Shown here: positions 181 to 57,667 of the stretch, in pieces
Layout of the letters: each line of letters starts with the position of its first letter
Position numbering within the stretch: position 1 is the stretch's first letter
From: Naegleria gruberi
Lineage: Eukaryota
Assembly: GCA_000004985.1 (NCBI GenBank)
Contig: GG738919.1
Direction: 5' to 3' (one strand)
DNA: 64,000 nucleotides
The notes under the pieces: model-generated
What the model was told of the DNA's origin: nothing
Databases searched by the model: none
Seen by the model: only the letters and a program-made list of their open reading frames with translations
Program-made: the position numbers and the translations under genes

Positions 181-2377
181 TTAAGCATAAAATAACATCT
201 TTTCCCATTCTTTCGATTCATTCAGTGAGGTCAAGCTTCCACATCTATATCCTCCTCTGCCAGTCAAATGCCATGAAATTTTATCTTTGCCTTCTGAAAG
301 ATCAGCAGTACCTAGTTGAACTAGAGACGATCCAGAGAAACCAAATGAGTGATTCTTCCAGTGATAAAAGAAACATCCATTCTCCTTAGTGGTTTCATTT
401 TCAAATGTTTCTCTCAAAACCTTTTGCTTCATACCCATAGCACAAAGTGCCAAAGCAGAAGAATTCTTGTGACGAGCGCCTATCAGAATACGAGTTCCTT
501 TGATAGCTTGAATATCTGCTTCACTAGTTGGGTGATGGTATGGTTTGTGATAGTAGAGACACCAACCTTTCAGCTTACTAATTGGTACATCAGTACAAAC
601 ACCGCTGACATAGAAAAGAGAACCTTCTCTGACTTTGAGACGAGCTGAATTGAACAAGTCAACTCTGTTTTGAAGTGAGTGAGCTCTGTAAGCTTCAAGT
701 AATAATTCACTTGGGACAACCTTTGAAATTTCCACAAATTCATACAATTCAATAGGATCCAAAGTTGGGAATCTAACATTATGTAAAATATCGTACAATA
801 GTTTGGCCAATTGTTGGCAGAAACTCTTATCGTGTGTATAATTGACAATCTTGAGAATTCTTTCCTTCTTTTGCTTCAATTCATCTGCATCTTGTTTGCG
901 AGAGGCAGAAGGATTGGTTAACATAATTTCAGGATTGAGTGTACTATATGCTAAGGTGTCAACTTCCTCTTCATATTCATCATCTTCATCCACAACATCC
1001 TTATCTGTTTCATCATCATCGTCATGTTTTGGATTGAGTTCAGAAATTGATAATTCTGGACTTGGTTGTGGAGCTTTCTGTTCTGAAATTGAAAGATTTC
1101 TCTCAGTCAAACTCTCTGTCAGCCCAGATTTCTTCAAATGATCTGGAAGATTTTCCTTCGAAAGTACCTTACTAGAACCATCCATTCCATAAGAGATGAC
1201 AGTCTTAGTTGGAGTTGAAGTACTTCCAACACTATTCTGATGACCTGAAGCAACATGTGTCTGTACAGTAATTTGATTTGCACCTGATTTTGGTGAAACA
1301 ATTTGCACACCCATTCTGTGAATTAATTGATGTTTTCCCCAAATAACGACAGCAATGAAAATATCCAATTCACCCAAGTGAATCTTGTCAGATTTTAACA
1401 AGTCAATCAGGGTTTCCTTTGTAATGTTTAAAAAGCTTTCCGAGAAGAACATTTGATTTGCATTTTCTTCCAAATATTCTTTACAGTACTTTCTCAATTC
1501 TAATAGTTTAGGATAAACGTCAATGACAAAAATACATACCATCAAAGTTATGGAATGATGATTCTTCCAAAACATCAAATACATTATCGGCTGATACACA
1601 ATCCTTCACATATTCAATACATTTCTCCTTCACTATTTGTACACCCAACTCATCACTCAATTTCAAAACACCAAATGCATTAAAATGATTAATATTAATC
1701 ACAGCTGAATAAAAGAAATCCAACAAGCACTTGAAATCATCTGGTCTCTTATCTGGAAACTTTAAATAACCCTGCATACAGTCTTTCATTTGTGAGTGGA
1801 ATAGTTTACTGAAATATTCACAACGAGCACATAAAATAGCTCTGTGTACTTTAAATTCCACAACAGAGCAGTCATCTGATGGATAATACTTGTTTTTAAA
1901 CTTGTCAGAGCTATTAGTTGTCTTGTAAGGTTTATCCTCTTCCATACTTCCAATCAATTTTGAAGGACCCACAACAATTGTCAAATCGGACATTATTTCC
2001 GATTCGAATAGTTTCATAATATCTTGTCTATATTGTTGTAAAAGTAATAAATCAAAAGAAGGATCCTTCTGTGTGGTCGATGAATTTGGTTTCCCAATAG
2101 AAATAGTTCTACTTCTAGCTGATGATGCTGATGAAGTTCCTGTGGTCAATCCAGTAACTCCCAACTTGGGAACAGCAGTTGTTGGTGTGGTGACACTTGT
2201 TGTTGCAGTCACTACTATTGAAGTAGCACCACTTGCAGAGGCAGCTGTACTTGCGAGAGTAGATGATGCTGAAGTTGTAGTAGGAGTCAATGTTGAGGAT
2301 GGTGTTGTTACAGTGCTGGGAGTCGATGATGATGATGAGGAAGTAACAGCAGTAGTGGAGGCGCTTGGAAGAGTCAT
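181..2377 (-). CDS. BTB/POZ-BACK domain protein with S/T-rich N-terminus and a C-terminal globular domain of uncertain family; two exons joined by one short intron
   Basis: ORF 1520..2377 gives a poly-Ser/Thr N-terminus followed by a BTB domain (HRAILCARCEYFSKLF...). ORF 181..1599 continues with BACK-like sequence (FLNITKETLIDLLKSD...IFIAVVIWGKH) and a C-terminal domain (GWCLYYH..ILIGARH..GCFFYHW..GYRCG). The frames are joined by a minus-strand GTATGT donor at 1539/1538. The acceptor is at plus 1467 or 1479, giving an intron of 61-73 nt. True ATG at 2375-2377; TAA stop at 181-183. Confidence 0.7.
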
Positions 2378-2756
2378 TGATAATTGTTCTCTCTAGATGT
2401 AAATATTTACAAAGTGACTATGGTGGTTTGTTCTTTCCAAAATCAACTAAACACAAGCAGTAAATTGTTAGTAGTTGTTGATTCAGTGTGGTGCCTTCGG
2501 AAAAGTGGAGGATTTGATTTTGTTTTTTAATTTTTTAAAATCATTATCGCGTGATGTTTGATCCGAATCAGCACCAAGAGAAGTGAAGAAATTGGAACTG
2601 TGCTGAGGAAATTCGCAGAACACGATTTTACTGTTCTTTGTTATATTAAGGAGCACGATAATGTTAGATTCACTTTGGTGATTGTGTTGATCTAGTTCAC
2701 ACAAGAGAATGATTGCCAAATGTTTGTGATTCAGTCATTTTTGATGTGAGCTCGTA

Positions 2757-3952
2757 TTAAACTTTGAATAATTGCAGCTTGTTATTGGGAAGAAGTGTTT
2801 GCCAGTGACTCAGGAATTGAAGTAGAGTTTTTGAACCATGTTTGAAGAGGTAGGAAATGAGGGAGTGGAGTGTATCATGATCGGAGGAGAGTAGTTTCTT
2901 TGTAATTTGAATCATTACAAAGTTAGTCCAAGAATTCGACAATTCGGCAAGTAAGAGTATGAGATAATGAGAAAGATTGCAGTCGAGGAGACTAATCTCA
3001 CCTGTATCGAAAATTCTACTGACATACTTGGATTGTTGTTTCCAATTTGAAAGAATGTTTGGTAATTCCTCAAGAAGGAGATTTGAAAATGTGTCCAAAT
3101 GTTGGGAAGAAAGGTCAGTGATGGAAAGAATCAATGTTTCCAATCCTCTACTATTGCTTGCCACAATTTTACATAAACGTTTGAAAAATTTGGAAATTCC
3201 AGAGCTGTACATTTCTGACAGTATTTCTAATTGTGAAGTAATTAATTTCACCTGGACAAAGGAGACATGTCTACATTTCACACAATATTCCAAAGAACTT
3301 GTATAGTAATTGGTGTTCACCTCTAGTAAAGGAAAATTATCTACATGTGAAACTGCATTAGAAAATAATTGAGAGAATTGACATTCCTTCTCAAACATCT
3401 GTTCCAAGTAGTTATCCAATATTCCAAACTATTTAAACTACTCACATCAGTAATCATATTCAAAATATTCACAATTGGAGGCTCATCCGATTTCTCCTCA
3501 TCAAAATTAATTTCTGTCTCTTCCTCTGCCCCTTCTGTATTAAAATCATCATCAGTTGCTGTTGTATCCTCATCCTCTTCTTGTTCATCATCTTCCATCA
3601 AATAATCAAAAGCAGTCTTCTCAGTCACTCCTGTTGTCTCTTTCGATTGTTGCAACATTGTCAATTGTAAGTTCATCCAATCCTGTATAATTCTCGTATA
3701 TAATGCATAATCCTCTTGTTTTCCACTAAACATTGAATTTCCAACATGACGAAAACAACTCGTCAGAAACAACTCTGTTAATCCAACAAGATTGCTCTTA
3801 ATATTCAATAAATTCTTCAACAATTTTACTCTATTCAAATCCTCCAAATAATCCACAGCACTTTCCCTCTCATCAAATTTCCTACACCAATCCAAAGCCA
3901 ATTCATAATCTAATTCCGAAGAAGGCTTGTTTCCATTCGTCGGAACGAACAC
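2757..3952 (-). CDS. hypothetical acidic protein, two exons
   Basis: ORFs 3341..3952 and 2757..3419 are joined by a minus-strand GTGAGT donor (plus 3440-3445) and a CAG acceptor (plus 3399-3400). This gives a 47-nt intron, and exon 2 begins ATGTTTGAGAAG. The upstream ORF starts on GTG, not ATG, so a further 5' exon or start in 3953-4100 is likely. The 5' end is unresolved. Confidence 0.45.
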
Positions 3953-4653
3953 ACTATTTACAAACCTTTAATATTCTTCCCTCTGAAAGATTTTAATGGA
4001 ATGGTACTTTGCATGAGAATTCCTTCCAATTGTTGAGTGGTTTCTTCCTCTTCATCAAGTTGCAACATTTTTTTTTTAATTTTTAATTTTATTTCCACTT
4101 TTAATCAGAAAATGATTTTGTAAAAATTGTTGAGAGTTGTATTCCAACAGTTGATTGTAAAGACCCAATGCATTTTTCAATCAATAATGGACCTTTACAA
4201 ATGGCCAATTCATCCAAATCTTTTCATTTTTGACTCTTGATCAGAGAAATCAAAACTAGATTTGTCTCTTTTTGTATTTTACATCATCTCTTGCTTTCAT
4301 ATTCCAAACACCAAATCAATTCTCTAAAAATCCCAATAGATCATGGATTTCGCAAAACTCCTCATTCTCAATCTACCTTTTCGAAATCATTCTTCTCCAA
4401 TCGCTTCCTTATGCAGTACCTTTTATGATGTTTTGTGGTGCGGATTCTTTCTTACTACCACCAACACTTTGCGCCAACAAACAACCTTTCATCATTAAAA
4501 AAAAAACAAATACAATCGTCGCTTATTTTTCTGCAACACACAACTTTGAGGAGAGAAATCATATTTCAAGGGTTTGAGAAAACGCATCATCTATTGTTCT
4601 TTTATTTAAAAAAAGTTCACGTTTAGACAGTATTGTGGAAAAAGAGATAGAAA

Positions 4654-7188
4654 ATGGTTGTGGATAATAGCGATAGTAGAACAAGTCTTCGAGTGAATGA
4701 ATCAGAGTTACGAGTGCCTTCTGCAGAATTATTAGAAATGGATAGTAATATGTCGAGTTTTTCGGGCTCGTTTGATATTGCCATCGGAGGAGGAGGAAAT
4801 AAACAATATGAAGACAACTATGATGAAAGGTCAACTACTCGTTCACATAGTAATAGCACTGCAAAGGAAAAGGCAATTTCTGTGCTGCAGAAGAAGTTTG
4901 ACATTAAAAATTTATTTAATAATGAAGAGATGGAAAAGAGAGATAAAGTGGGTTGGCTAAACTCTATTCGATTCAAGACTCTAACAATATTACTCTTGCT
5001 GTTCTTTGTGACAGTGTTGGCTTGTCTGGTAATATTGATCGTTGCCTTCCATTTATCATATACGAGGGTTGAGTACAATTCGGTGGTGGAAGCAAGTGTT
5101 AGAGTATCTCGAGGAATACACGAATATTATAGTGGTCTGTATGTTAAACTTTTGGAATATGCACCATGGGATTCAACTTTGAATCTGTTTGTGAATGTGA
5201 CCTATGAGGATGGTACCACAATTGAGCCAAGTCCTGAACTGGTTGACCAATATTTTACAAACAACATTTTTTGTTCATATATGAGCAATGTTAACTTGTC
5301 ACTTGTTGCTCTGTATTATTTGAACGGAACTAAATTAAGGAGTATGGCTTGCTTTAACTCAACATTGGAGGAGAGTTTACCTGAAGAATTGGAAAATCTT
5401 TCGCCAGATCATTATCTCATTAAGGATATGTCAGTAACATCAACTAGGAGAGCTACCTATATGAAGCCATCATCAAACAATGTAAATCACTCTAATGACA
5501 TGTTAATGCTCGTGGCAATGCCGGTACTGAGCTCGGATTATTCATCAGAATCTGGAGGTGTTATGGTATTCGGAAGATACCAGAACGCTGATGCTATTCA
5601 TGCATTAACTACCAAGACTCAACTTTGTATATCATTTTATAATTACAATTCTTCGAGCGATCAGCTTGTTGTTGAAAAATCAACATCAACAAGTGCTAAA
5701 CAATTCGATTCTGTTGTTTCTTCAAGTGAAGCATTGCAGGTAGATGTAGAAGATGACAGCTGGGTGTTACAATCAGCAATATATGTTTCTACATTTGATT
5801 CTGCAGATGCTGTGGCGACTACAAATAGGTATTGTTATTCTACCAAGACTAAAAATTCTGGAATGACTCCAGAAGCCATTGATGGTGAAAGAATGTCTGC
5901 TTATCAAATCATGTCTGATATTAATGGAGAAAAGACAATTCTCGTTAGAACAGACATGTCTAGAAAAATTTACACTAATGGAATCAATTCTTTCCTTATT
6001 ACTTGGGGAGTAATGACAGTCATGTTAATTATCCTTTCTGTAGCTGTAATGGCCTTTATTGAGCTAGTGGTGCTGAGAAGAATGGTGAGATTAACTAATT
6101 CAGTCGTTAAAATTACAAACAATTGGGAAACTGTTGTGATGAACGGCTCTAGAATTCCCAAATATACCCAAGACGAAATTGGTAGATTGGCAAACCGCGT
6201 TAATTTAATGCTTGGAGTTTTGGAAAAGTCCTATCAACACTTACAAAAGGATCACGAAAATGCTCAATCTCTATTAGATCGAACCTCTCTTGAGGAACAA
6301 AAATATAGACAAGTGTTGAATGCTATATCAGATTTCATTATTACCATTGATTCTAAAGATGGTAAAATATTGAATTATAACACATCATTCCAGGCTAAAA
6401 TCATGACCAGAGTGGTAAATGAGGCCACAGAGAAGAAGGTCACCAACAAGGCAATTAATGAATACTTTGACTCCAAGCCAACCATGCAAGAGTTGCTTGG
6501 TAGGATGGAGGACATTTGTTCTGGCACAGCCAAGATTTGGGAAACTAATTTTGTTTCAAGATACAATGCTCTCATACCCATTCATGTAAATTGTAGTAAG
6601 GTGAAGATTGTCATTGATGGAGGAGAAATTGTGGATGCATTTGTTCTGTTGGCAAGAAATATGGCCGACCAGTACGAACTTCAAAAGACAATCAAGACTC
6701 AACAAGAACAATTCTCAGAGCAAAGAATGAATTTCGAGTTTGACTATTATTGGAAGAATAAGGAAATGAAAGAAAAGTTGAGAATATTCTGTATTAATGA
6801 GAAATCATACGAAAATTGCCTATTCCTTGAAGAAGTTGAAGCATATAGAAAGATTAAACGTACACATAACCGTGTCAAGAAGCAACAGGAAATAATTGCC
6901 AAATTCCTGACAAAGGATGCCAAATATGAGCTCAATATTTCTAAAGAGGAAGAGTTTACAATCGTTTCTAAAATAAGGGATGGATATGGGCAGATAGATT
7001 TGTTGGATAAACTGTTTTCCATTGTACGGGGAATGTTTTATAGAGATACATTCCAAAGATTCCTCAAAGAATTGGATCAAGAGAATGAGTCCACTACTTC
7101 ATCTAGTGGATTGGACGTAGACGAAACATCAGATACAATCTCATCTTCCACATCCTTCACTGATTTCACTGGTCCTACAGATAAATAG
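4654..7188 (+). CDS. receptor-like membrane protein: N-terminal cytosolic tail, TM1, ~310-aa extracytoplasmic N-glycosylated sensor region, TM2, HAMP, PAS, C-terminal RGS (regulator of G-protein signalling) domain
   Basis: Single 844-aa ORF with an ATG start. Two hydrophobic helices (LTILLLLFFVTVLACLVILIVAF and FLITWGVMTVMLIILSVAVMAFIELVVL). HAMP signature DEIGRLANRVNLMLGVL directly after TM2. PAS-like core (VLNAISDFIITIDSKDGKILNYNTSF...ARNMADQ). RGS motifs (RIFCINEKSYENCLFLEEVEAYRK; KYELNISKEEEFTI; FYRDTFQRFLKE). Confidence 0.75.
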   Translation: MVVDNSDSRTSLRVNESELRVPSAELLEMDSNMSSFSGSFDIAIGGGGNKQYEDNYDERSTTRSHSNSTAKEKAISVLQKKFDIKNLFNNEEMEKRDKVGWLNSIRFKTLTILLLLFFVTVLACLVILIVAFHLSYTRVEYNSVVEASVRVSRGIHEYYSGLYVKLLEYAPWDSTLNLFVNVTYEDGTTIEPSPELVDQYFTNNIFCSYMSNVNLSLVALYYLNGTKLRSMACFNSTLEESLPEELENLSPDHYLIKDMSVTSTRRATYMKPSSNNVNHSNDMLMLVAMPVLSSDYSSESGGVMVFGRYQNADAIHALTTKTQLCISFYNYNSSSDQLVVEKSTSTSAKQFDSVVSSSEALQVDVEDDSWVLQSAIYVSTFDSADAVATTNRYCYSTKTKNSGMTPEAIDGERMSAYQIMSDINGEKTILVRTDMSRKIYTNGINSFLITWGVMTVMLIILSVAVMAFIELVVLRRMVRLTNSVVKITNNWETVVMNGSRIPKYTQDEIGRLANRVNLMLGVLEKSYQHLQKDHENAQSLLDRTSLEEQKYRQVLNAISDFIITIDSKDGKILNYNTSFQAKIMTRVVNEATEKKVTNKAINEYFDSKPTMQELLGRMEDICSGTAKIWETNFVSRYNALIPIHVNCSKVKIVIDGGEIVDAFVLLARNMADQYELQKTIKTQQEQFSEQRMNFEFDYYWKNKEMKEKLRIFCINEKSYENCLFLEEVEAYRKIKRTHNRVKKQQEIIAKFLTKDAKYELNISKEEEFTIVSKIRDGYGQIDLLDKLFSIVRGMFYRDTFQRFLKELDQENESTTSSSGLDVDETSDTISSSTSFTDFTGPTDK

Positions 7189-24836: not shown

Positions 24837-26921
24837 ATGTCGGATAGAAGATCCCCAACTCAGGGGACGCTTAAACTGCAGCAAAACAAGGCAAGGCCTG
24901 TGAGGATGGCCTCAAAGCTGCTAATTTCTCAAAAAACATCTGTAAATTTAAATGCAAATAGTACTAGTTTTGAAAATTCGCAATCCATCACATCACTTCC
25001 AGGTGGATCGAATCAAACACAAAATTCAATAACCATCATGTCTGATGAAACTAGGAAAATTGTAGATATGCTAAAGAAGGAAGTAGAAACACTAAAGTAC
25101 GATCTGACAAACTCTGAAACAGAGAAGGAAACATATGTATTTCAGATTGGTGAAATTAAAAAGAAAAATAGACGAGATATGGAAAGATTGGAACAGGAAT
25201 TACATGATAGAAAAGAAAAGCAACATAGTATGGAGGAAAAACTGTCACGTGTTGAACAAATTGAGGATGCAATCATTAAACTCTATCTCGAGTTGAAAGA
25301 TAGAAGTTATGAGGCTGTTGGAAGTGATGATGACATTAAAGAGATTGAAAAGAAAGAAAAAGAGGAGCTCAAAAAAGAGAACCCACTTGTAATATTGGAT
25401 AGATTAAAAGCAAACTTGAGAACTTTATTGGTATTTAAGGACGATTATGAGAATGAACTGAAAGATCAAATTAGACGAAGAAAAACTGAAGCTGAGTATA
25501 AGGTTGAAGAATTGAAAATGAAAATTGAACAAATGCAACAAGAGAAAGATGAATATAAGAGTGCTGCTATGAAAGCTATTGAATTGAAAGATCGAGCTGT
25601 CAGAGATCAAAATGATAATACTGACTCTTTCTCTAATGAGATTAATACCTTAAAACAGGAAAATAGCATGCTTGCCAGCGTTCTTGCAAAGAAAGAACAG
25701 GAAATAGACAAGCTTCACGAGATGATTGATCGAAGAGATTCAATTCTTCGACACAGAGAAGTTCAAATGATGAAAATTACTCAACTGGAGAGTAAAATCA
25801 AAAACGATAAGACTAAACACCAATTCGATATCAACAGGGAGAAATCTGAAAAGTATCAAGTTCTCAAAAAGTATGACAATGATATTAATTTTTACCAGAA
25901 AATGGAAAATGAAAAGAAGGAAATGGAAAATGAGTTAAACAAAATGCGAGACGAAGTTAAATCCCTAAAGACAAATGCTAGTAGAGAAAAAGTTCAAGAA
26001 TTAACAGAGGTGAATCAGAAACTTCAAGAAAGAGTCAATTCATTAACCGAGGAGCTTAAGAAATACCAAGCAGAGTCACGATCTTTGAAAATCCAAGTCT
26101 CCAATTTGAGAAGATCCCAAGTTGAAATGAAGCAACAATACTTGAACATTTTCAATGCCAATTTAGAAGAAAAGAAGAAGAGGAAGGCCCAAGAAGAAGC
26201 CAATATCAAGGAACAAATTGAAAGACATTTCCACGAAAATGCTGAAAGAAATCCTCAATTGGCATCGTATTACAAGAAGAAACTGAAAGAGAAGGAGAGA
26301 GAAGTGGAAGAACTTGGAAAGAGGTTGAAGAGAATGATTCTTCACCAAAACAGAGAAAATCAAGTGGAAAAGAATTTTATCAAGGAAAAGACTTACTTGA
26401 TTGGAGAATTAACACAATTAAGAAGACAGATACCTAATGCCATCCCAAATGATGATTACACAAATCCAAACAGTCATGCTGCTCTCTTACAAAGAAATTC
26501 CTACCTTGAAGAAAAACTTAGAGACTATGAGAATTTACAAATCATTTCCAAATCTTCAACTGTAAGTTTTGTACATAGTATTTCATATTTATTGACTGTT
26601 TAAAAGGTTGCTTATGAAAAGATTGCAACAAATAAGATCAATACCTCTATAGATTTGGACAAGTCTGCATTTACAGACCTTCAAGAATATGTGGATGGTC
26701 CTGTCCCTGATTCACCAGCCAGCGTCAAGACACCTTCATTAGCCTTACCAGAATACAAATCTGGTAGACCATTATCTGCTACATACGCAACTTCAAAGAG
26801 AAAGGTTGGCGTTGCTCTGCCTCCTGCTGGCTCTCGACCCTTATCTGCTGGTCCCAGAAGACCCGTCTCTGCACGATTCGTTCAAAGACCAGTACAGGTT
26901 GGAACTTTAACAAACCAGTAG
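24837..26921 (+). CDS. long coiled-coil protein with basic Ser/Pro-rich C-terminal tail carrying RPLSA-type repeats; two exons
   Basis: Exon 1 is 24837..26561 (donor GTAAGT). Exon 2 is 26607..26921 (acceptor TTAAAAG); the intron is 45 nt. The ORF-track ORF at 26655 starts on TTG. Charged heptad-like sequence throughout. Tail contains GRPLSATY / SRPLSAGP / RRPVSARF. Confidence 0.55.
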
Positions 26922-27090: not shown

Positions 27091-29955
27091 TCATTGTTGG
27101 AATGAAAGGAAGTTTGTGGTGGAGGTTGGAGTTGAGCTTGGTTGTGGTGCTTCTTTTTCTCTCTTCTTGGACTTAGAAGTTGTACCACTTGAAGATGGTG
27201 TAGAAGTGCCTCTTAGATAAGCATCATTATAAAGAGTCTTGACATCTGGCCTTTTTGACATTTCATGTGTAAGGCAACGTCTGATAAATTCCTTAGCTTC
27301 TTCTGAGACAGCAGGTTTATCAGGAAAACCAACTTGGGTGGCATTTACGATTGTTCCTTCGCTAAGAATTTTTTGTTGTGAAAGGTTGTTTCCAAATGGT
27401 TTTGTACCGTACAACATTTGGAAAAAGATTACACCCGCCGACCAAACATCAACCTTGTTTGAAATTTTAGGTGGTGGACCTTCACCTGATGGGTTATAAA
27501 AACATTCTGGAGGTAAATACCAATATGTTCCTGCACCCTGTGATGTCAACTCTATAGACTCTTCTTCATCCATAATTTTAGAAAGACCAAAATCTGTAAT
27601 CTTAATATTTCCATCCTTATCAAATAAAATGTTAGCAGGTTTCAAATCGTAGTGAATAACTCTTTGCTTTTGTTGGCATAAATAGTTAAGTCCACTAAAT
27701 ATTTGAGAAATGATATTCTTGGCTTCTCTTTCTGGTACTCTTTGGTGCTTTTTAATGTACAAATCCAAATCAGCACCCTCACAATATTCCAATACTGTAA
27801 CAAAAGTGTTATTGTCAAAGACAAAAGTGTCATACATCTTGATAAGCTTTTCATGATTAATGCTTTGATTAATTTGACATTCTCGCAACACGTGTTTGAT
27901 ATAATTCTCCTTTCGGTGCTCTTTCCAATTTGGATTCAGTTGATGTATTTTACATGCCACAACTTTAAAGTCTGTGAGATCATAGGCCTTGTAGACTTCA
28001 CTAAAGCCTCCTTTACCAAGCATTTTCATAAGGAAGTATTCATGATGATTACTTGGTTGTGGTTGTTGACCATTAATTTGAGGTGTTCCAGGACCATCTG
28101 GTGTGGTTGGAATATATTTTTGGTGTCCAATGATTGGATAATTCTTAAACATTGACTTTTCTTGATCTCTAATACGTTTGATTTCTCTGATCTGTATACT
28201 CTTTTCAATCAAGAGGTTCTCTTGTTCTGCAATATTTTGAGTTTCTTCCTTCTTGAGATGTATAAGTTTTAACTTGACTGTTTCCTCTTGCTCATTTAGG
28301 TCGTGCAATTGTTCTTCTAATTTTCTTATAAATTCGGCATCGTTTGTAGTAATTTGTTCCTTCTTCAATTGTTGTCTTTGTTTTTGAATATTCTTCTTTT
28401 GCTTTTCCAATTTGTCTTTTTCTGTCGTTATTCTATTTTCATTTTCTTTCAATTGTTGGAACAGTGTACCATCTTGCCAAACTTCATAAACGTCCAATCC
28501 TTTTTGATATGTAATAGTACCTATTGTTATTGACTTTTCATTAACCTTTTTCTTATCCTCAATTCTTTCTCTTTCAGCCCTTTCTCTTAAAAATTGGACT
28601 GCAATTTCTCTGAATCTCTTATTACGTTCGTTGTTTTTAATATCATAGTCATGGATTGCATTCTTCATTTGATTGATTTCACTCTCATAACCCTTTGTCT
28701 TGGATTCAGAATTTTCAAGCGATTTGTCTTTTTGTTTCAATTGCTCTTTAACATGTTCGAGTTCTAGTTGTAATTTGGCAATCTGTTGTTGATAAGCTTC
28801 AATGTTACTTTGAACGCCTGTATTATTTATGGCACTGGAACCCATACTAGAATTGGAATTGTAAGACATCATAAAACTGTTACTATTATTGCTAGCGTCA
28901 ACATATAAACTATTACTGTTTTGATTAGAGGAAGAAGATGCCATATTGGATTGACTCTTCTTTGAAGTGCTAGCTTGAAGACTTTGAAACATTTGAGGAA
29001 GTGTCTTTTGCTTCTTGTTTGAAGGCTCCACAAGTTCCTCACCCTCAATACTTAGAGAGTTTTCTTGTTTGTTACAATTTAAAGTAGTATTATTGCTGTT
29101 AGGAGGTGCGAGGTAAATTACAGGAGATGTTTGAGGTAGTGATTGAGGTTGGTTGGATTGATAAGTAGTACTGTTTTCAGTAATGCTCGATGAAACAGAT
29201 GAAGGAATAGTAATTTGATTATTGTTGTTGTTGTTGTTCGTACTGGTGTTGATAGTATTGTTTGAGTACTTGTCACCAGAGTTTTGTCCACTAATAATAT
29301 TAGAAGCATTATTATTGGAGGATCCAGCATTGTTTGTTGAAGAGGAAACTCCAGAAGATGAAGCTTGTTGAGCGGTAGATACAGGCTCACCATCGTCTTT
29401 CCTCATTCTCATATATCTGCTCTTGATTTGTTCCTTTGTTCTTTCGATACATGCATACTTTGCGACACCATCCCAATCAATGTTATTGTCCTTCTTATGT
29501 TTTGCAATTCCTTCTTTAATCTTTTTATCTTCTTCTGGGGTAAATCTTCTTCTCTTCTTTGCCGCAGCAGCAGCTGTTGAAAGATGAGCAGCAGCAGGAT
29601 TTGAAGTAGATGATGATCCTGTACTACTACCTGGAGCACCATTACCAGAACTTGATTTGTGGAGGTTGAAACTGCCTTGATTACCACTACCCATATTAAA
29701 ACTTTGGTGGTGGTCCATATTATTCACTCCATACATATTGTCATCTTCTTCTACAAGATGATCATCATTATCTCTCATCATTGCATTATTTACAAAGGTC
29801 CTTTGTAGGCCTGGTTGATATTCAGAAGACTCTTCACTGTTTACGCTTTCTTCCATGTGTTCTTCAGATTCGTCATTAGAGAGTGATACTGTTGTGCCAA
29901 ATCCCTGCGGAGAAGTTGGTTTAGAGTTGTTAGACTCTCCCGCTGTATGTTGCAT
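27091..29955 (-). CDS. TLK: Tousled-like Ser/Thr protein kinase with N-terminal Myb/SANT-like region and central coiled coil
   Basis: 954-aa single ORF with an ATG start. The C-terminal kinase domain carries TLK-specific motifs (GKGGFSEVYKAYDL, HYDLKPANILF, ITDFGLSKIMDEE, GAGTYWYLPPECF, PPKISNKVDVWSAGVIFFQMLYGTKPFG). Myb/SANT-like RRRFTPEEDKKIKEGIAKH..IDWDGVAKY..RTKEQIKSRYMRMRK at about 29397-29559. Confidence 0.85.
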   Translation of the reverse strand: MQHTAGESNNSKPTSPQGFGTTVSLSNDESEEHMEESVNSEESSEYQPGLQRTFVNNAMMRDNDDHLVEEDDNMYGVNNMDHHQSFNMGSGNQGSFNLHKSSSGNGAPGSSTGSSSTSNPAAAHLSTAAAAAKKRRRFTPEEDKKIKEGIAKHKKDNNIDWDGVAKYACIERTKEQIKSRYMRMRKDDGEPVSTAQQASSSGVSSSTNNAGSSNNNASNIISGQNSGDKYSNNTINTSTNNNNNNNQITIPSSVSSSITENSTTYQSNQPQSLPQTSPVIYLAPPNSNNTTLNCNKQENSLSIEGEELVEPSNKKQKTLPQMFQSLQASTSKKSQSNMASSSSNQNSNSLYVDASNNSNSFMMSYNSNSSMGSSAINNTGVQSNIEAYQQQIAKLQLELEHVKEQLKQKDKSLENSESKTKGYESEINQMKNAIHDYDIKNNERNKRFREIAVQFLRERAERERIEDKKKVNEKSITIGTITYQKGLDVYEVWQDGTLFQQLKENENRITTEKDKLEKQKKNIQKQRQQLKKEQITTNDAEFIRKLEEQLHDLNEQEETVKLKLIHLKKEETQNIAEQENLLIEKSIQIREIKRIRDQEKSMFKNYPIIGHQKYIPTTPDGPGTPQINGQQPQPSNHHEYFLMKMLGKGGFSEVYKAYDLTDFKVVACKIHQLNPNWKEHRKENYIKHVLRECQINQSINHEKLIKMYDTFVFDNNTFVTVLEYCEGADLDLYIKKHQRVPEREAKNIISQIFSGLNYLCQQKQRVIHYDLKPANILFDKDGNIKITDFGLSKIMDEEESIELTSQGAGTYWYLPPECFYNPSGEGPPPKISNKVDVWSAGVIFFQMLYGTKPFGNNLSQQKILSEGTIVNATQVGFPDKPAVSEEAKEFIRRCLTHEMSKRPDVKTLYNDAYLRGTSTPSSSGTTSKSKKREKEAPQPSSTPTSTTNFLSFQQ

Positions 29956-44543: not shown

Positions 44544-47500
44544 TTATTTGAGTTTTGAATAAATTTTTTCCAAATACTGTGTTATTTCTCTGAAGGAAGG
44601 CCTCTTACTTGGAATGGAATTCCAACATTGCTTCATCAATTCCACATAATCACTACACACGTTACAAACAGTTTCATGATCTAGAGAATTTTTCTTCTCA
44701 AATGGTTCAATAAACTCTCTCAACCACACCTCCAATTCTTCATTGTTATTCCAGGGAATTTTAGGACGTTCACCCCTCACCACCATCACTGGAACGGATA
44801 ATGCAAGTGAATCTTGATGTGGTGATTGAGAAAATTTGTGAATTTTAGGAGAATTGGAAAAAAATGGTTTCTCCTCAAAGAATAGTTCATACATAATGAT
44901 ACTGTAACTGTACACATCGAGTGCATTTCCAATTTCTTGTCCACTTCCAATTAATTCTGGAGCCATATATAGAATGGTACCTAAATTCATTGTCATTGAG
45001 AAACTTCCACTATTTGAGGTCAACTTGGACAAACCAAAATCACAAATTTTAGGTTTCAAATTGGCGTCCAGCAAAACATTTCCACATTTAAGATCTCTGT
45101 GAATTAAAGATAATGGCTTCAATGAGTGTAAATAGTCCATTCCTTTGGATACTCCCGATAAAATTTCAATCTTTTCCTTTAAATTCAACTTTTTTCGTCC
45201 TGATTTAGAGTTGGCAATTGCAGTTTCCAAACTCCCATTTTCCAAATATTCCACAACCATATATCTTGTATTTGAGCTGATAGATATTCCAAATAATCGA
45301 ACAATAGCTGGATGTCTAAGACTATTCAATAAACTTGCTTCATGCTCAAATTCATCCTCAAGTAATTCATCATCTGTTTTCAAGCTCTTCACAGCAACAT
45401 TAATACCATTCCATTGAGCTAAGTATACACTACCATGACTTCCTTCACCAATTCTCTTGCTTATTTCAATATCTTCAATTGGAATTAACAAATTATTGGA
45501 AGATTTCGTCTGAATATTTGTCAAGAGCGGGGTTGAAATCTCTCCAAATACAAACTTCTTGTCAATAATCTTTTTAGCAATTTGGGATTCACGTTTATCC
45601 TTTTTGTGGAGTCTAAATAATCTTTTTCCAATCTGAGTAGTCAAAAAAGCTCCAAATCCCAATAAGATTAACAGCAATATCACTCCAAATATTGTTGAAA
45701 CAGCAATGGCTGAATAATTCTTGAATTTACAAACTCTACTTGTTGGTAAACCTTCATATCCAAAATCGAATGGGCACTTCTCCACATTAATTCCAATTTC
45801 AAAGTTGTAGAGAAATTCTGATAACGAAACTTGAATATTAAAATTGCTTTCTCCTTCACACCATTCAAATGATAAATTCATAATGGTATTGTTGGCTTCC
45901 TTCTCGTGCATGATAATAATCGAAGATTTTGAATTAATGGAAGAAACAACAGGTAATGCTTGGAGTGATGTAAGAGTATTGTTGAACTCATCAATTATTT
46001 GAATAATTTCTAATGTTATTTGCTGACCTGGATAGAGAGATAGTTTTGGAATTGTATTGCTGGTGGAAGAATAAATGCTTTTAGAATTTGACGTTTTCCA
46101 CAACACTTGTTGGATGTGACTAGAACCACACTGTCCAGATAATGCACCATCAGATGAAACTACACAACTTTTCAAAAATCGATTATCCTGTGGAAAATAT
46201 ATGAAATTCCCTGAATAAGTAGCATCGTTTCCAATATTACTTGTTTGAAAAACTCTAACTTCCCCATAACAAGCACCTCCCTTAACAGCCAAGTTGTACT
46301 CAAAATTAGATCCTGAAAAGTAGAAAAAGCTGTTTGAGGAATAAATGGCACCACCATTTCCACAATCCTTAACACTCAAACATCCTTCAAAGTTTCCAAT
46401 AGCTTGATTGGAAATGAATTTTGAAAATCTATCTGTAATAAAAGACCTTTCAGAATAAATAGCACCTCCATTAGATGCCTTATTATTGATAAATAGACAA
46501 TTAGCAGTTGTAAGTTTTGCTTCATTCAAATAGAGCGCACCTCCTTGATTAGACCAATTGTCTCTAAACGTGCATTCAATGATCCTAATACGTTCACTAT
46601 CAAGTTTCTGTTTTCCATTATTATTAATTGACAGGGCATTTCTATTTCTTTCAAATATACAGCTTTCAATTGATAAATCGTTGACTTGTTGGAATGAGAG
46701 AGGTTCAACATTATCTGAAAAGTTCATAGATTCAAATTTGGCTTGAATATTTCCAATAACTTGAATACTTGAATTATTAGAAAGTGAAATTGCACTCACT
46801 AATATAGATTCGCTTCCAATCCACACATTATTAGTTTGTTCCATTTTACATTCTTTCATAATTATAGCCCTCACAGACATGATAAATAGTGTGGAACCTT
46901 CGAATTGATTTGAAGTAAAAATTATTTGCTCTGATGAGGTGATGGCTATAACGCTTTGTTTGAAAATGCTATCATTCATTCCAAAATCAATAATATTATC
47001 ATTATACACTTTAGATTTTCCTTGAATATTCGAATTTACAATTAATCCATTCTCAATTCTAATCTTTGCTGTTGAAAGTGAGCAATTCAATAATGTTGAA
47101 TTGTGAATAAGCGCTGGATATAAATAACTCCAAAGTGAACATTTATACATTGTCGATTTTTGAATAATTAGTAAATCTGCATAATAGTTAAGCTCTACAT
47201 TTTCCAAAATACAGGAATCGATCATCCAAAGTGGAATTTTAGACGAACTTGCACTATCAATTTTCAAATTAGATAATTTCACATTTGATAATATAAATTG
47301 ATCACATTGTTTCGATAGATAACTAATACTTTCAAGAACATCCCACTCACTTTGTGTAATATAATAGTAGTCCTTTCGGTTCCCAATAATTAATGAATTA
47401 GTTCCATTCTGAATATCTTCCAATAAATAGGACGAAATTGTTAAATTAATTAATTTTCTATTATTATTAATAAATGTTGGCTTTGTCAAATTACTCATCA

Positions 47501-47771
47501 AATAAATTTTAATATTCAATTCATCATCGGAAGAAGTTAAATTATTTGAAAGATAATTTCGAATTTGTTGTAATGAAGAACATGGACTGGAGGGAGATAG
47601 ACAAGGAAGATTCGACTCATTGTTATTTGTATTTTCATTATAGAAGAAGGTTAATTGGAGAGAAAGAGTGAAGGGAAGAATGGATAATAGAAAAAGAAAG
47701 GCAAGATTTGGATTCATTTTTTTAATATTGAAAAAGATGAAGATCCGATAACAATACAGCCCCATCGACAT
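44544..47771 (-). CDS. receptor protein kinase (TKL-type): signal peptide, large ectodomain with parallel beta-helix/PMP-like GGAIY repeats, one TM, cytoplasmic kinase domain
   Basis: 1075-aa single ORF with an ATG start. Ectodomain repeats NGGAIYSERSF, GNGGAIYSSNSF, KGGACYGE. TM helix IAVSTIFGVILLLILLGFGAFLTT. Kinase motifs GEGSHGSVYLAQW, VAVKSLK, HRDLKCGNVLLD, ICDFGLSKL, ILYMAPE. Confidence 0.8.
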   Translation of the reverse strand: MSMGLYCYRIFIFFNIKKMNPNLAFLFLLSILPFTLSLQLTFFYNENTNNNESNLPCLSPSSPCSSLQQIRNYLSNNLTSSDDELNIKIYLMSNLTKPTFINNNRKLINLTISSYLLEDIQNGTNSLIIGNRKDYYYITQSEWDVLESISYLSKQCDQFILSNVKLSNLKIDSASSSKIPLWMIDSCILENVELNYYADLLIIQKSTMYKCSLWSYLYPALIHNSTLLNCSLSTAKIRIENGLIVNSNIQGKSKVYNDNIIDFGMNDSIFKQSVIAITSSEQIIFTSNQFEGSTLFIMSVRAIIMKECKMEQTNNVWIGSESILVSAISLSNNSSIQVIGNIQAKFESMNFSDNVEPLSFQQVNDLSIESCIFERNRNALSINNNGKQKLDSERIRIIECTFRDNWSNQGGALYLNEAKLTTANCLFINNKASNGGAIYSERSFITDRFSKFISNQAIGNFEGCLSVKDCGNGGAIYSSNSFFYFSGSNFEYNLAVKGGACYGEVRVFQTSNIGNDATYSGNFIYFPQDNRFLKSCVVSSDGALSGQCGSSHIQQVLWKTSNSKSIYSSTSNTIPKLSLYPGQQITLEIIQIIDEFNNTLTSLQALPVVSSINSKSSIIIMHEKEANNTIMNLSFEWCEGESNFNIQVSLSEFLYNFEIGINVEKCPFDFGYEGLPTSRVCKFKNYSAIAVSTIFGVILLLILLGFGAFLTTQIGKRLFRLHKKDKRESQIAKKIIDKKFVFGEISTPLLTNIQTKSSNNLLIPIEDIEISKRIGEGSHGSVYLAQWNGINVAVKSLKTDDELLEDEFEHEASLLNSLRHPAIVRLFGISISSNTRYMVVEYLENGSLETAIANSKSGRKKLNLKEKIEILSGVSKGMDYLHSLKPLSLIHRDLKCGNVLLDANLKPKICDFGLSKLTSNSGSFSMTMNLGTILYMAPELIGSGQEIGNALDVYSYSIIMYELFFEEKPFFSNSPKIHKFSQSPHQDSLALSVPVMVVRGERPKIPWNNNEELEVWLREFIEPFEKKNSLDHETVCNVCSDYVELMKQCWNSIPSKRPSFREITQYLEKIYSKLK

Positions 47772-55285: not shown

Positions 55286-57667
55286 TTATTGTAATATTAA
55301 TATAAAATAAATAACAATCATGCCAATTGTCATTGCCATATTTGTAAATCCATTGTAAATACTCAATGCTGATCCAAGAACCATTGAATTGACTCCTCTC
55401 TTTGAGCTAAAAGTTGAAGGTTGAGGTAAAACTCTATCTCCACATCTCTCACCTCCAAATCCACTCTTACATGAACAAGTATTGATGGAAGTGCAATTTC
55501 CATTTCCGGAACATGCTAATGGATCATTGTAAAGAGTTCCAAAACAGAGTGGAAGACAAAAAGTGTTGGTTTCATCGGTGAGAGAGTTGGCTGGACAAGC
55601 TTGTTTGGAAATCTTGAGAATACGATTGGAGAAACCACCTGAAACTAACAAATCTCCTTTTGGAGTAAATGAAAGACCTGTAGCACTCATAAAAATGGTT
55701 GTTGCATCAGAATATGATTCAGGAATGCTACTGTTTTTGCTTCCAAAGATTGTTACCAGAATTCCCTTTGAAGTAATCTTTCGAATATTGTTTCCATCTG
55801 AGAAGAAAACTTCTCCCTCTTTTGAAACAGCAACCGATGAAGGATATCCAATTCCAGTACTTGTAGCAATTCCAAAATCTTCACCAACAGTGCTGTCTCC
55901 ATTACCTGCCACTGTTGTAATATTACCATTCTTAGAGAGCTTTCTAATGAGATAATTATCATAATCAGCAATATACAAATCACCATTTGGAGCCAGTGCG
56001 ATATCTTGTGGACCACTGAACTTTGTCTTTGTTGCCAATCCATCACCATTGAACCCACCATCTTCCAACACTCCAGCAATGATACTCATCACTCCATTTG
56101 TAGAAATCTTTCGAATAACATGACTCGATCTATCAGCCACCAACAACTCACCACTCTCTGTCAAAATTACAGCTTGAGGAGAACCCAAACCACTCACAAC
56201 TGTATCAACAGTTCCATTCGATGCAAAAATCCTTCTAATTGCTCCATTAAACAAATCTGCAATGAAAATATCACCATTTTTGGAACATGCAATTCTGGTT
56301 GGTTCGTTGAACTTGGCCAACTTGGCATCTGATCCATCACCACTATAGCCATGGTCACCTGTGCCGGCGTATTGTGAGATAATACCATTTGGGGAGATTT
56401 TTCTGATTTTGTGATAGGCACTTTCGGCTATGAAAGTTTCGTCTAGAATGTTTGTGCAGGCATGTTTAGGATAGTAGACAAAGGCTTGTTGGCTGTTGTA
56501 GCCATCTCCTGTAAACTTTTTAACATCTCCAGTAAAGTCTGGTTTGAGGGTGAGAGTGATACTATTTCCTTTAGTGTCAACCTTTCGAATATACAAGTTT
56601 CCATTATCTGCAATAAACATTTCGCCCAAGCTTGATAGAGCAACACTGGTTGGAGCAGAAAGAAGGGCTGAAGTTGCAGGAACGTTTTCATCTTCTCTGC
56701 TATAACCACTACTATTTGGGACTCCAGCAACTGTTGAAATAATTCCACTTTTCGAAACCTTTCGAATAAGGGAATTCAAAGTATCAGCAATATAGACCTC
56801 ACCAGTGGATTCATAAAAGAAAACACCATAAGGTGTGTTCAGTAGAGCTTGCTTTGCTTGAGAACCATCTCCTCCATAACCATTTATGGTTCCATTTCCA
56901 GCAAAAGTGGAAATTATTCCATTTGCATCAATCTTTCGAATAACGTGATTCTTTGAATCGGCAATATACAATTCACCAGTTGAACTAATTGACAAACCAA
57001 TTGGACTATTCAATTGTGCTGTTTTGGCATTTCCGCCATCACCAGAAAATCCTTCTTCACCATTTCCAGCTATTGTTGAAATATTACCATTTAGAGAAAT
57101 CTTTCTAATCACATGATTTGATTTATCAGCAATATAAACTTCACCATTCGATGCTACTGCAACACCAGTTGGAGTATTCAATCTTGCACGAGTTGCCAAA
57201 CCATTGTCTCCACTGTAACCCAAGTCACCCTTCATTCCTGCCACAATTGTTTGAATTCCCTTCGAATTTAATCTAACAATGACACCTCCTACTGGATCAC
57301 TAATGAGCAAATCATTGGAATTTGGATAGAGAGCAACACCTCCTGGTTGAAACTCCAAATCCTTCGTTAAAGTTGTAATTCCACTCACAGTATCCAACAT
57401 TCTAATCTTGGTCATGCTATCCTCAGTCATGTAGAGAATATTACTCGAGGCAGAGATGGCAAACATGTTGGGACGAGAGAATACGAAAGAGGATGGTATA
57501 TTACTTCCCTCCTTCTCACCAGCAACCACAACTGAAACATTGTACTTGATAGCTGTCAGTTGTGCATTCACTACTGCACAAAGGAGAAACAAGAGAATCG
57601 CAATATGACAGCAGACTTTGTGAATCTGATTGGTTTGCATGTTTTTTTTTGAAATGTGTCTTTCCAT
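55286..57667 (-). CDS. type-I membrane protein with ~11 tandem NHL repeats, an EGF-like Cys-rich module and C-terminal TM
   Basis: ATG start. Signal peptide. Repeated NHVIRKISxNGxISTIAGNG / GDGGxAxxAxLNxPxGx units. EGF-like CLPLCFGTLYNDPLACSGNGNCTSINTCSCKSGFGGERCG. C-terminal hydrophobic MAMTIGMIVIYFILIL. Confidence 0.7.
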   Translation of the reverse strand: MERHISKKNMQTNQIHKVCCHIAILLFLLCAVVNAQLTAIKYNVSVVVAGEKEGSNIPSSFVFSRPNMFAISASSNILYMTEDSMTKIRMLDTVSGITTLTKDLEFQPGGVALYPNSNDLLISDPVGGVIVRLNSKGIQTIVAGMKGDLGYSGDNGLATRARLNTPTGVAVASNGEVYIADKSNHVIRKISLNGNISTIAGNGEEGFSGDGGNAKTAQLNSPIGLSISSTGELYIADSKNHVIRKIDANGIISTFAGNGTINGYGGDGSQAKQALLNTPYGVFFYESTGEVYIADTLNSLIRKVSKSGIISTVAGVPNSSGYSREDENVPATSALLSAPTSVALSSLGEMFIADNGNLYIRKVDTKGNSITLTLKPDFTGDVKKFTGDGYNSQQAFVYYPKHACTNILDETFIAESAYHKIRKISPNGIISQYAGTGDHGYSGDGSDAKLAKFNEPTRIACSKNGDIFIADLFNGAIRRIFASNGTVDTVVSGLGSPQAVILTESGELLVADRSSHVIRKISTNGVMSIIAGVLEDGGFNGDGLATKTKFSGPQDIALAPNGDLYIADYDNYLIRKLSKNGNITTVAGNGDSTVGEDFGIATSTGIGYPSSVAVSKEGEVFFSDGNNIRKITSKGILVTIFGSKNSSIPESYSDATTIFMSATGLSFTPKGDLLVSGGFSNRILKISKQACPANSLTDETNTFCLPLCFGTLYNDPLACSGNGNCTSINTCSCKSGFGGERCGDRVLPQPSTFSSKRGVNSMVLGSALSIYNGFTNMAMTIGMIVIYFILILQ

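Follow-up and report, generated by a model that had tools for sequence, protein, structure and literature searches.

A Naegleria gruberi gene joining a CHASE4-HAMP-PAS input module of prokaryotic type to an RGS domain: a candidate receptor-type GTPase-activating protein

Introduction

What does a eukaryotic regulator of heterotrimeric G proteins do at the end of a chain laid out like a bacterial sensor kinase? The question is raised by a gene on the + strand, at positions 4654-7188, of a 64,000-nucleotide stretch of Naegleria gruberi DNA (contig GG738919.1, assembly GCA_000004985.1; this whole stretch is called the window), in a genus known for exotic domain fusions. A first-pass annotation made from the letters alone had assigned to its product the domain order of a two-component sensor kinase in which an RGS domain replaces the kinase core. 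The analysis reported here bears this out: with high confidence, the product consists of a first transmembrane helix (TM1), a 314-residue CHASE4 ectodomain, TM2, HAMP, a coiled-coil signalling helix, PAS, a 28-residue helix and RGS, which is the order of prokaryotic CHASE4-HAMP-PAS transmitters. HisKA and HATPase_c gave no match in Pfam or NCBIfam even at E up to 10; since this core is absent and the input half alone is held in common, the protein is not a histidine kinase. We think it fairly probable that the gene encodes a receptor-type GTPase-activating protein (GAP), in which the CHASE4-HAMP-PAS input controls the RGS domain acting on G-alpha.

Receptor-GAPs, among them AtRGS1 and the 7TM-RGS proteins of Naegleria, are a known alternative to signalling by G-protein-coupled receptors (GPCRs) that act as guanine nucleotide exchange factors (GEFs), for G proteins that are self-activating. 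In N. fowleri some G-alpha subunits, of which G-alpha5 and G-alpha7 are named, are self-activating, nucleotide exchange being faster than hydrolysis, and the RGS domains of 7TM-RGS proteins speed hydrolysis on them via the canonical interface (Bosch, Jeck, Siderovski, JBC 2022, PMC9283941). The same work counts 28 7TM-RGS proteins and 79 other RGS-domain proteins in the N. fowleri genome, the architectures of the latter being undescribed there, and neither HAMP nor CHASE is mentioned in the text or supplements examined (PMC9283941). TM-anchored RGS proteins are widespread in eukaryotes, and N. gruberi has a lineage-specific expansion of G-alpha (De Mendoza et al. 2014, PMC3971589). For N. gruberi, 24 histidine kinases have been listed, with no mention of CHASE4 or RGS (Kabbara et al. 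2018, PMC6324907).

Results

Domain organization and topology

The open reading frame (ORF) list gives an uninterrupted ORF from ATG to stop, 844 codons long, preceded two codons upstream of the ATG by an in-frame stop. With the base composition of the window (A and T at about 33% each, giving a stop-codon probability of 0.073), the chance of a run of 844 sense codons is about 1e-28, or about 1.5e-23 when corrected for every position on both strands. The translation agrees with an N. gruberi database protein of 844 residues (P0001) at 100% identity and 100% coverage, so that the ORF called at first pass is confirmed and the public gene model is the single exon 4654-7188. The gene and its parts are as follows (aa, amino acid residues; pLDDT, predicted local distance difference test).

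4654-7188 (+): whole gene, a complete single-exon coding sequence of 844 aa plus stop, N. gruberi "predicted protein" P0001
4654-4965 (+): N-terminal cytosolic tail, aa 1-104; 9-23% identity to homologs, pLDDT <50 for aa 1-86, predicted disordered
4978-5049 (+): TM1, about aa 109-132; hydropathy maximum 3.48, five K/R in the preceding 15 aa and one after, hence N-in
5050-5991 (+): CHASE4 extracytoplasmic sensor with a tandem PDC/Cache-like fold, aa 133-446; Pfam core aa 167-329, nucleotides 5152-5640
5992-6063 (+): TM2, about aa 447-470; hydropathy maximum 2.93, LRRMVR directly after, 67-75% identity in homologs
6070-6225 (+): HAMP, aa 473-524; AS2 motif DEIGRLANRVNLM at aa 507-519, nucleotides 6172-6210
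6226-6300 (+): coiled-coil signalling helix from HAMP AS2 to the PAS N-cap, aa 525-549; model helix 508-557, heptad register
6301-6660 (+): cytoplasmic PAS, aa 550-669; fold by model and fold searches
6661-6741 (+): PAS-to-RGS helical linker running straight into RGS helix 1, aa 670-696; model helix 671-701
6742-7101 (+): RGS, aa 697-816; Pfam match aa 697-805, nucleotides 6742-7068
7102-7185 (+): C-terminal tail rich in Ser, Thr and Asp, aa 817-844; pLDDT <50, predicted disordered

Both ends of the chain are identified by profile matches above threshold. CHASE4 (Pfam PF05228) reaches 39.6 bits over aa 167-329, where the gathering score is 26.2, and RGS (PF00615), which had been read from the C-terminus at first pass, scores 42.3 bits against 23.9 over aa 697-805; each profile also matches all five close homologs, with a best E of 1.8e-14 for RGS. 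The first-pass annotation, which proposed a search with Cache/CHASE models, had not named the CHASE4 domain. The extracytoplasmic domain of about 310 residues described there between two TM helices stands, at 314 residues: hydropathy gives two strong hydrophobic segments only, and the distribution of K/R around them predicts, by the positive-inside rule, an N-in/loop-out/C-in topology. The description of this domain as glycosylated found no support, the N-x-S/T sequons not being enriched in it (7 in 314 aa versus 8 in 530 aa elsewhere; Fisher p = 0.43) and only those at N224 and N235 being conserved across all five close homologs. The ectodomain invariants are R392, D434 and a cysteine pair, C325 (53/71) and C394 (54/57), which is compatible with a putative extracellular disulfide.

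The HAMP and PAS domains are marked by conserved positions in the family described below. The HAMP motif DEIGRLANRVNLM begins 37 residues past TM2, and the AS2 signature DE-x-G...N-x-M recurs in an alignment of 79 family members (D507 in 50, E508 in 56, G510 in 39, N517 in 56 and M519 in 44 of 57 sequences). More distant family members carry a HAMP domain above the gathering score of 25 bits (P0009 27.5, P0015 27.7, P0007 30.2 and P0051 32.4 bits), and the weak matches that NCBIfam yields for the window protein all fall on the TM2-HAMP regions of bacterial sensors. In PAS, N576 (78/78) and F579 (76/78) are near-invariant.

Predicted structure and fold comparisons

An AlphaFold2 monomer model built on 79 family sequences has a mean pLDDT of 82, and 470 of its residues reach at least 90; an earlier run on 5 sequences had given 39.5. 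In the model TM2 continues into HAMP AS1, followed by a loop and a 50-residue helix (helix-loop-helix 438-489/491-497, loop, 508-557), then by a five-stranded PAS sheet (561-669) and by a 31-residue helix (671-701) that leads into the RGS helices, so that the helices are continuous at both the HAMP-PAS and the PAS-RGS junction. The RGS part has the all-helical RGS-box fold, and the ectodomain has the CHASE4 fold, with a long scaffold helix, a membrane-distal subdomain that is PAS-like and a membrane-proximal subdomain. Fold matches, with their scores and deviations, are given below.

RGS: RGS3 (2oj4), 16.2, 1.8 Å
RGS: RGS4 from the Gi-alpha1-AlF4 complex (1agr), 15.9, 1.6 Å
PAS: 4l9f, 3bwl and 3mjq, 12.3-13.4
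Ectodomain: solved bacterial CHASE4 domain 8wct_A, 12.5, 3.1 Å, 189 residues aligned
Ectodomain: tandem-PDC sensors DctB, vpHK1S and LuxQ, 10.8-12.4

In Foldseek the RGS part has TM scores of 0.86-0.87 with RGS8 and RGS16 as solved in complex with G-alpha; the scores are 0.76-0.79 between the PAS part and PAS domains, and about 0.43 between the ectodomain and the dCache domain of TlpA. Within the fold searches the PAS domain resembles the cofactor-binding PAS domains of FixL, NifL and LOV. Structure prediction of the ectodomain, which had been put forward as a check, led to a match with a solved CHASE4 domain.

The G-alpha interface of the RGS domain

The RGS domain was aligned with an RGS4 sequence whose numbering reproduces the textbook contact residues. 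S85, E87, N88, E126, N128, D163 and R167 of RGS4 correspond to S718, E720, N721, E759, N761, D798 and R802, all seven being identical, and these switch-contact residues are invariant in the five close homologs (alignment A1). Conservation extends through the family, in RGS4 numbering, for E87 (63/73), N88 (59/73), N128 (63/71), D163 (55/69, with Glu in 10 more) and R167 (57/67). In every testable respect the window RGS is an R4-like RGS domain, and this conserved interface suggests that it would act as a GAP.

Family and distribution

A word-indexed search recovers only four close homologs (two from N. lovaniensis, one from an SRA assembly and one from ENA), colinear with the window protein at 48-52% identity; with a 32-sequence profile it recovers 8 proteins and no new family members. 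An exhaustive HMMER profile search yielded 3431 matches at E up to 1e-3, of which 55 reach E up to 1e-30 and many span the profile. The best 155 of the 3431 matches were scored with per-domain hidden Markov models (HMMs) built from the Naegleria alignment, and in at least 40 clusters, formed at 50% identity and scored by their representatives, CHASE4 and RGS belong to the same protein, as a rule separated by TM2-HAMP and PAS. The conservation of the fusion, which the first-pass annotation had left to be checked, is thus that of a large family and not of a singleton, and a colinear fusion in at least 40 clusters would, for practical purposes, rule out two separate genes. Named members come from Heterolobosea only (N. 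gruberi, N. lovaniensis, Willaertia magna and Acrasis kona), the rest being from metagenomes. N. gruberi has at least seven paralogs, including the window gene, NAEGRDRAFT_54250, D2VY64, NAEGRDRAFT_76151, NAEGRDRAFT_60041, NAEGRDRAFT_74859 and NAEGRDRAFT_80549, and the members from A. kona have been named automatically "RGS7", "RGS21", "RGS9" or "regulator of G-protein signaling". Between Naegleria species the structured domains are 43-76% identical (ectodomain 43-51%, PAS 46-48%), and the N-terminal tail is 9-23% identical; since all structured domains are conserved and the tail is divergent, selection acts on the whole chain.

The SRA homolog (P0003) lies on a Naegleria-like contig of run SRR29240419 (2601-8586) and is 82% identical to N. 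lovaniensis P0004. Its upstream neighbour encodes a phage-type single-subunit RNA polymerase (RPOL_N/RNA_pol), unlike the neighbours in the N. gruberi window, and local synteny is therefore not conserved. A JGI contig of 2547 nucleotides (L002) carries an ORF at 242-2539, without poly(A), and ends 8 nucleotides past it.

The variants found in the family show that its parts are modular. A JGI protein of 705 aa (P0063) combines PAS-RGS with CHASE (PF03924, the cytokinin-receptor type) at 51.5 bits, above threshold, and in P0062 (796 aa) CHASE, also followed by PAS-RGS, scores 21.5 bits, short of the gathering score of 25; HAMP was not detected in either of these two proteins. PAS-RGS is also combined with two TM segments and an ectodomain that matches no recognised type, in P0065 of N. 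gruberi and P0043 of Acrasis, and it occurs as a soluble protein (P0045). NAEGRDRAFT_80549 (P0167, 1427 aa) adds to CHASE4-HAMP-PAS-RGS a C-terminal RCC1-like beta-propeller (WD40_RLD, 260 bits) and might thereby connect the control of G-alpha with a module resembling a GEF for small GTPases. CHASE4-HAMP is joined to an adenylate/guanylate cyclase in two adjacent, divergently oriented genes (P0054 and P0051) at 1731-5970 of JGI contig Ga0606064_0664 (L003), next to ORC5_C, zf-CCHC and tyrosine-recombinase genes; because of the ORC5-like gene the contig looks eukaryotic.

Relationship to prokaryotic transmitters and linker lengths

Comparison by hhalign of the five close homologs with a prokaryotic CHASE4-HAMP-PAS-histidine kinase-REC protein (P0006) gave a probability of 97.4 and an E of 1.4e-11 over 394 columns, the alignment being colinear from TM1 through CHASE4, TM2 and HAMP to the start of PAS; with the 32-member family profile E is 1.6e-54. 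The closest prokaryotic relatives of this input block have HisKA/HATPase, GGDEF-EAL, HD-GYP or cyclase outputs. Because the input block is abundant in prokaryotes and, among the named eukaryotes found here, occurs only in Heterolobosea, we infer that TM1-CHASE4-TM2-HAMP-PAS came from prokaryotes by horizontal transfer, that its fusion with a eukaryotic RGS domain took place in an ancestor of Heterolobosea, and that the family expanded afterwards.

HAMP N517 and PAS D560 are separated by 36 residues in 16 family sequences, by 42 in 2 and by 43 in 36 (A4), the equivalent distance in P0006 being 29; the spacings 29, 36 and 43 are one-heptad steps, quantised as in bacterial transmitters. In the helix from AS2 to PAS, the fraction of hydrophobic residues at a/d positions is 0.75 in the best register and 0-0.38 in unrelated ones. 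Between PAS R668 and RGS F696 there are 28 residues in 44/67 family members, the length within PAS, from N576 to R668, ranging from 60 to 147. The support for coupling of PAS to RGS consists of this conserved length and of the continuous helix in the model. Overall, the linker pattern is that expected of a bacterial-type transmitter, which signals via rigid helical connectors, strongly so for HAMP-PAS and more weakly for PAS-RGS.

Discussion

Proposed function

The domain order suggests how the protein could work. It would be a two-pass protein of the plasma membrane, probably a dimer, whose extracellular CHASE4 domain may bind a small ligand. The signal, of either sign, would pass through TM2 to HAMP, along the coiled coil in its heptad register to the cytoplasmic PAS domain, and through the fixed-length helix to the R4-like RGS domain, whose engagement of membrane-bound G-alpha-GTP would be altered; when engaged, the RGS domain would accelerate GTP hydrolysis. 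As self-activating G-alpha of Naegleria is limited by GTP hydrolysis, a GAP under ligand control would set the level of the signal without a GPCR. The ligand-regulated, GPCR-independent GAP suggested at first pass would in this way fit the biochemistry of N. fowleri (PMC9283941). More broadly, and tentatively, Heterolobosea may have created an entire type of receptor by fusing two-TM sensors of prokaryotic descent (CHASE4 or CHASE, with HAMP and PAS) to RGS, so that bacterial-style helix and coiled-coil mechanics would gate the off-switch of self-activating G-alpha independently of GPCRs and alongside 7TM-RGS; this would be the first case in which HAMP/PAS signalling helices control a eukaryotic output that is not an enzyme.

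Several observations weigh against this interpretation. HAMP (PF00672) scores 18.5 bits over aa 473-524, below the gathering score, and its profile matches only 3/5 close homologs at E <1; the typical AS1 proline is an arginine here (R476) and is found in only 15/67 family members. PAS is also sub-threshold in Pfam (PAS 15.0 versus 22.6 bits, PAS_9 12.9 versus 27 bits), and when PDB sequences were searched with a profile of the HAMP-PAS segment, all that came up were spurious matches to coiled coils (IncA, FliG). In the PAS-to-RGS helix the hydrophobic maximum at a/d positions is 0.50, a weak heptad pattern, so that a dimeric coiled coil is no more than a putative route of coupling into RGS. 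The position of RGS4 E126 is unconserved in the wider family (P16, Q15, E14). Finally, the ligands of bacterial CHASE4 domains, whose solved fold is made up of a scaffold helix and two subdomains, the distal one PAS-like and the proximal one small, include extracellular ATP and Fe3+ (PA2072/IsmP), haem and probably copper (PMC12625894, PMC13277305), a heterogeneity that permits no ligand prediction for the window protein. As regards the two sub-threshold domains, which the first-pass annotation had called a textbook HAMP motif and a PAS fold, the calls themselves are supported by profile comparison, paralogs, family conservation, the AlphaFold model and the fold searches.

Other ways of reading the same protein have to be weighed against a ligand-controlled GAP. 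The CHASE4-HAMP-PAS part could merely anchor or dimerise the RGS domain beside a lipidated G-alpha, making the protein a constitutive membrane-tethered GAP, as might be expected from the many kinds of TM-anchored RGS proteins common across eukaryotes (PMC3971589) and from a PAS-to-RGS linker lacking a clear coiled-coil register. We regard this as unlikely, since a plain anchor needs no 314 conserved ectodomain residues with invariant R392, D434 and C325/C394, a conserved AS2 motif and heptad-quantised linkers would be superfluous in it, and the same input block drives cyclases on eukaryotic contigs and serves as sensor for histidine kinase, GGDEF and cyclase outputs in prokaryotes. It is rather unlikely that information flows the other way, with the G protein acting on the sensor and RGS serving as a docking or effector module for G-alpha-GTP as in GRK2, the RGS-RhoGEFs or Axin, where binding of activated G-alpha would sequester, localise or regulate the receptor: the window protein has no downstream output, and its GAP interface is intact.

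A post-HAMP PAS domain is often a pure relay module in bacterial transmitters, and this speaks against taking the cytoplasmic PAS as the primary, cofactor-dependent sensor of an intracellular cue (for instance redox state, oxygen or a metabolite), with CHASE4 secondary or vestigial. A PAS length varying from 60 to 147 is likewise not suggestive of one fixed cofactor pocket, and the ectodomain is conserved as much as PAS (43-51% versus 46-48%). What recommends the idea is that PAS is confidently folded and similar to the cofactor-binding domains of FixL, NifL and LOV, that N576 and F579 are almost invariant, and that the PAS-RGS pair is kept with a different or unrecognised ectodomain (P0062, P0063, P0065) or in soluble form (P0045). 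We hold PAS as primary sensor to be improbable, and it and the receptor-GAP reading are not mutually exclusive. That the gene is an artefact, whether two genes read as one, an assembly chimera, contamination or a dead relic of horizontal transfer, is scarcely credible. The exact protein is found on no other contig in the gene-position index; the same colinear fusion, however, occurs in independent assemblies (N. lovaniensis, Willaertia magna, Acrasis kona, the SRA run SRR29240419 (L001) and many metagenome contigs), the ORF is uninterrupted and all domains are under constraint. Moreover, the GC content of the gene matches that of its flanks (33%) and the neighbouring ORFs are eukaryotic and ordinary (BTB/BACK, LRR, Sec8-like, protein kinases, P4-ATPase, MFS transporter, NHL/EGF proteins), which rules out contamination.

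Comparison with known systems

The receptor-GAP thus favoured has its nearest functional counterparts in the 7TM-RGS proteins (Arabidopsis AtRGS1 and the 28 N. fowleri proteins), with which it shares an integral membrane location, a C-terminal cytoplasmic RGS box and the canonical G-alpha interface, and which are proposed or shown to be ligand-modulated GAPs on self-activating G-alpha. Since the N. fowleri proteins belong to the same genus, the window protein is likely to have the same G-alpha substrates. It differs in having a two-TM, prokaryote-type CHASE4-HAMP-PAS input and no 7TM bundle, and it is probably a dimer acting through helix and coiled-coil mechanics; with two TM helices, not seven, it lies outside the 7TM-RGS family, though it probably works like one of its members. 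From the prokaryotic side, the likeness is to CHASE4-HAMP-PAS transmitters such as P0006 and P. aeruginosa PA2072/IsmP (CHASE4-...-GGDEF-EAL), and comprises colinear homology from TM1 to PAS, the ectodomain fold of 8wct_A, a HAMP domain directly after TM2 and a HAMP-PAS spacing in the same heptad series (29, 36, 43). Unlike these, the window protein resides in a eukaryotic host, its ectodomain is about 50-100 aa longer and has conserved cysteines, and its output is a eukaryote-specific, protein-binding GAP domain and not a two-component, c-di-GMP or cAMP enzyme.

The R4-subfamily proteins RGS3, RGS4, RGS8 and RGS16 are only about 20-24% identical to the window RGS and have no sensor domains, being small and soluble or anchored by an amphipathic helix. 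Sensor and transmitter domains of prokaryotic type are also present in the fungal group III hybrid histidine kinases (Nik1/TcsC) and the plant CHASE cytokinin receptors; these keep the histidine-kinase output and the phosphorelay, whereas RGS replaces the kinase core here. The receptor-GAP concept is already established, and the novelty lies in the class of input module. No paper on a fusion of RGS with HAMP or CHASE4 came up in targeted searches of full texts, these searches not having covered Anantharaman et al. 2011, the likeliest survey to list such fusions. The first-pass annotation's view of an uncharacterised architecture holds to that extent; the family is nevertheless not undiscovered, since NCBI and UniProt already list its proteins under automatically assigned labels of RGS, CHASE4 or HAMP.

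If the proposed function is correct, receptor-GAP logic has been reached a second way, via a bacterial-type input module, and prokaryotic CHASE/HAMP/PAS transmitters are linked with eukaryotic heterotrimeric G proteins, two subjects usually treated apart. A HAMP/PAS transmitter driving RGS would be unusual to signalling specialists and is testable with assays established for Naegleria; it would allow one to ask, in a natural system, whether a domain that binds, and not an enzyme, can be regulated by the mechanics of HAMP and signalling helices, and could serve as a template for engineering small-molecule-gated control of G proteins. In relatives within the N. lovaniensis/fowleri lineage it would amount to an extracellular sensor without human counterpart, which is relevant where targets for drugs against N. 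fowleri are sought.

Other features of the window

A search with the family HMMs found no second family member within the 64-kb window. The family RGS HMM has one very weak match at 25231-25428 (+), with an independent E of 0.018 and 4.3 bits, in an ORF at 24837-26603 (588 aa) that has no Pfam match at E up to 1e-4; the match is probably due to chance.

Several further ORFs have domain combinations of their own. A 954-aa ORF at 27091-29955 (-) has a Myb-like DNA-binding domain in its N-terminal part (aa 135-184) and, as an unusual partner, a protein kinase domain in its C-terminal part (aa 643-913). In another of 1075 aa, at 44544-47771 (-), a match to the Chlamydia polymorphic-membrane-protein repeat (Chlam_PMP) lies upstream of a protein kinase domain, and the product may be a receptor-like kinase with an ectodomain of bacterial-type repeats. 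Two divergently transcribed paralogs, at 55286-57667 (-) and 57926-60391 (+), contain NHL/teneurin-like beta-propeller repeats, to which the second adds EGF-like domains. At 181-2377 (-), BACK (ORF 181-1599) and BTB (ORF 1520-2377) are found in overlapping ORFs in different frames, which are probably pieces of a single BTB-BACK gene that an intron or a frameshift interrupts.

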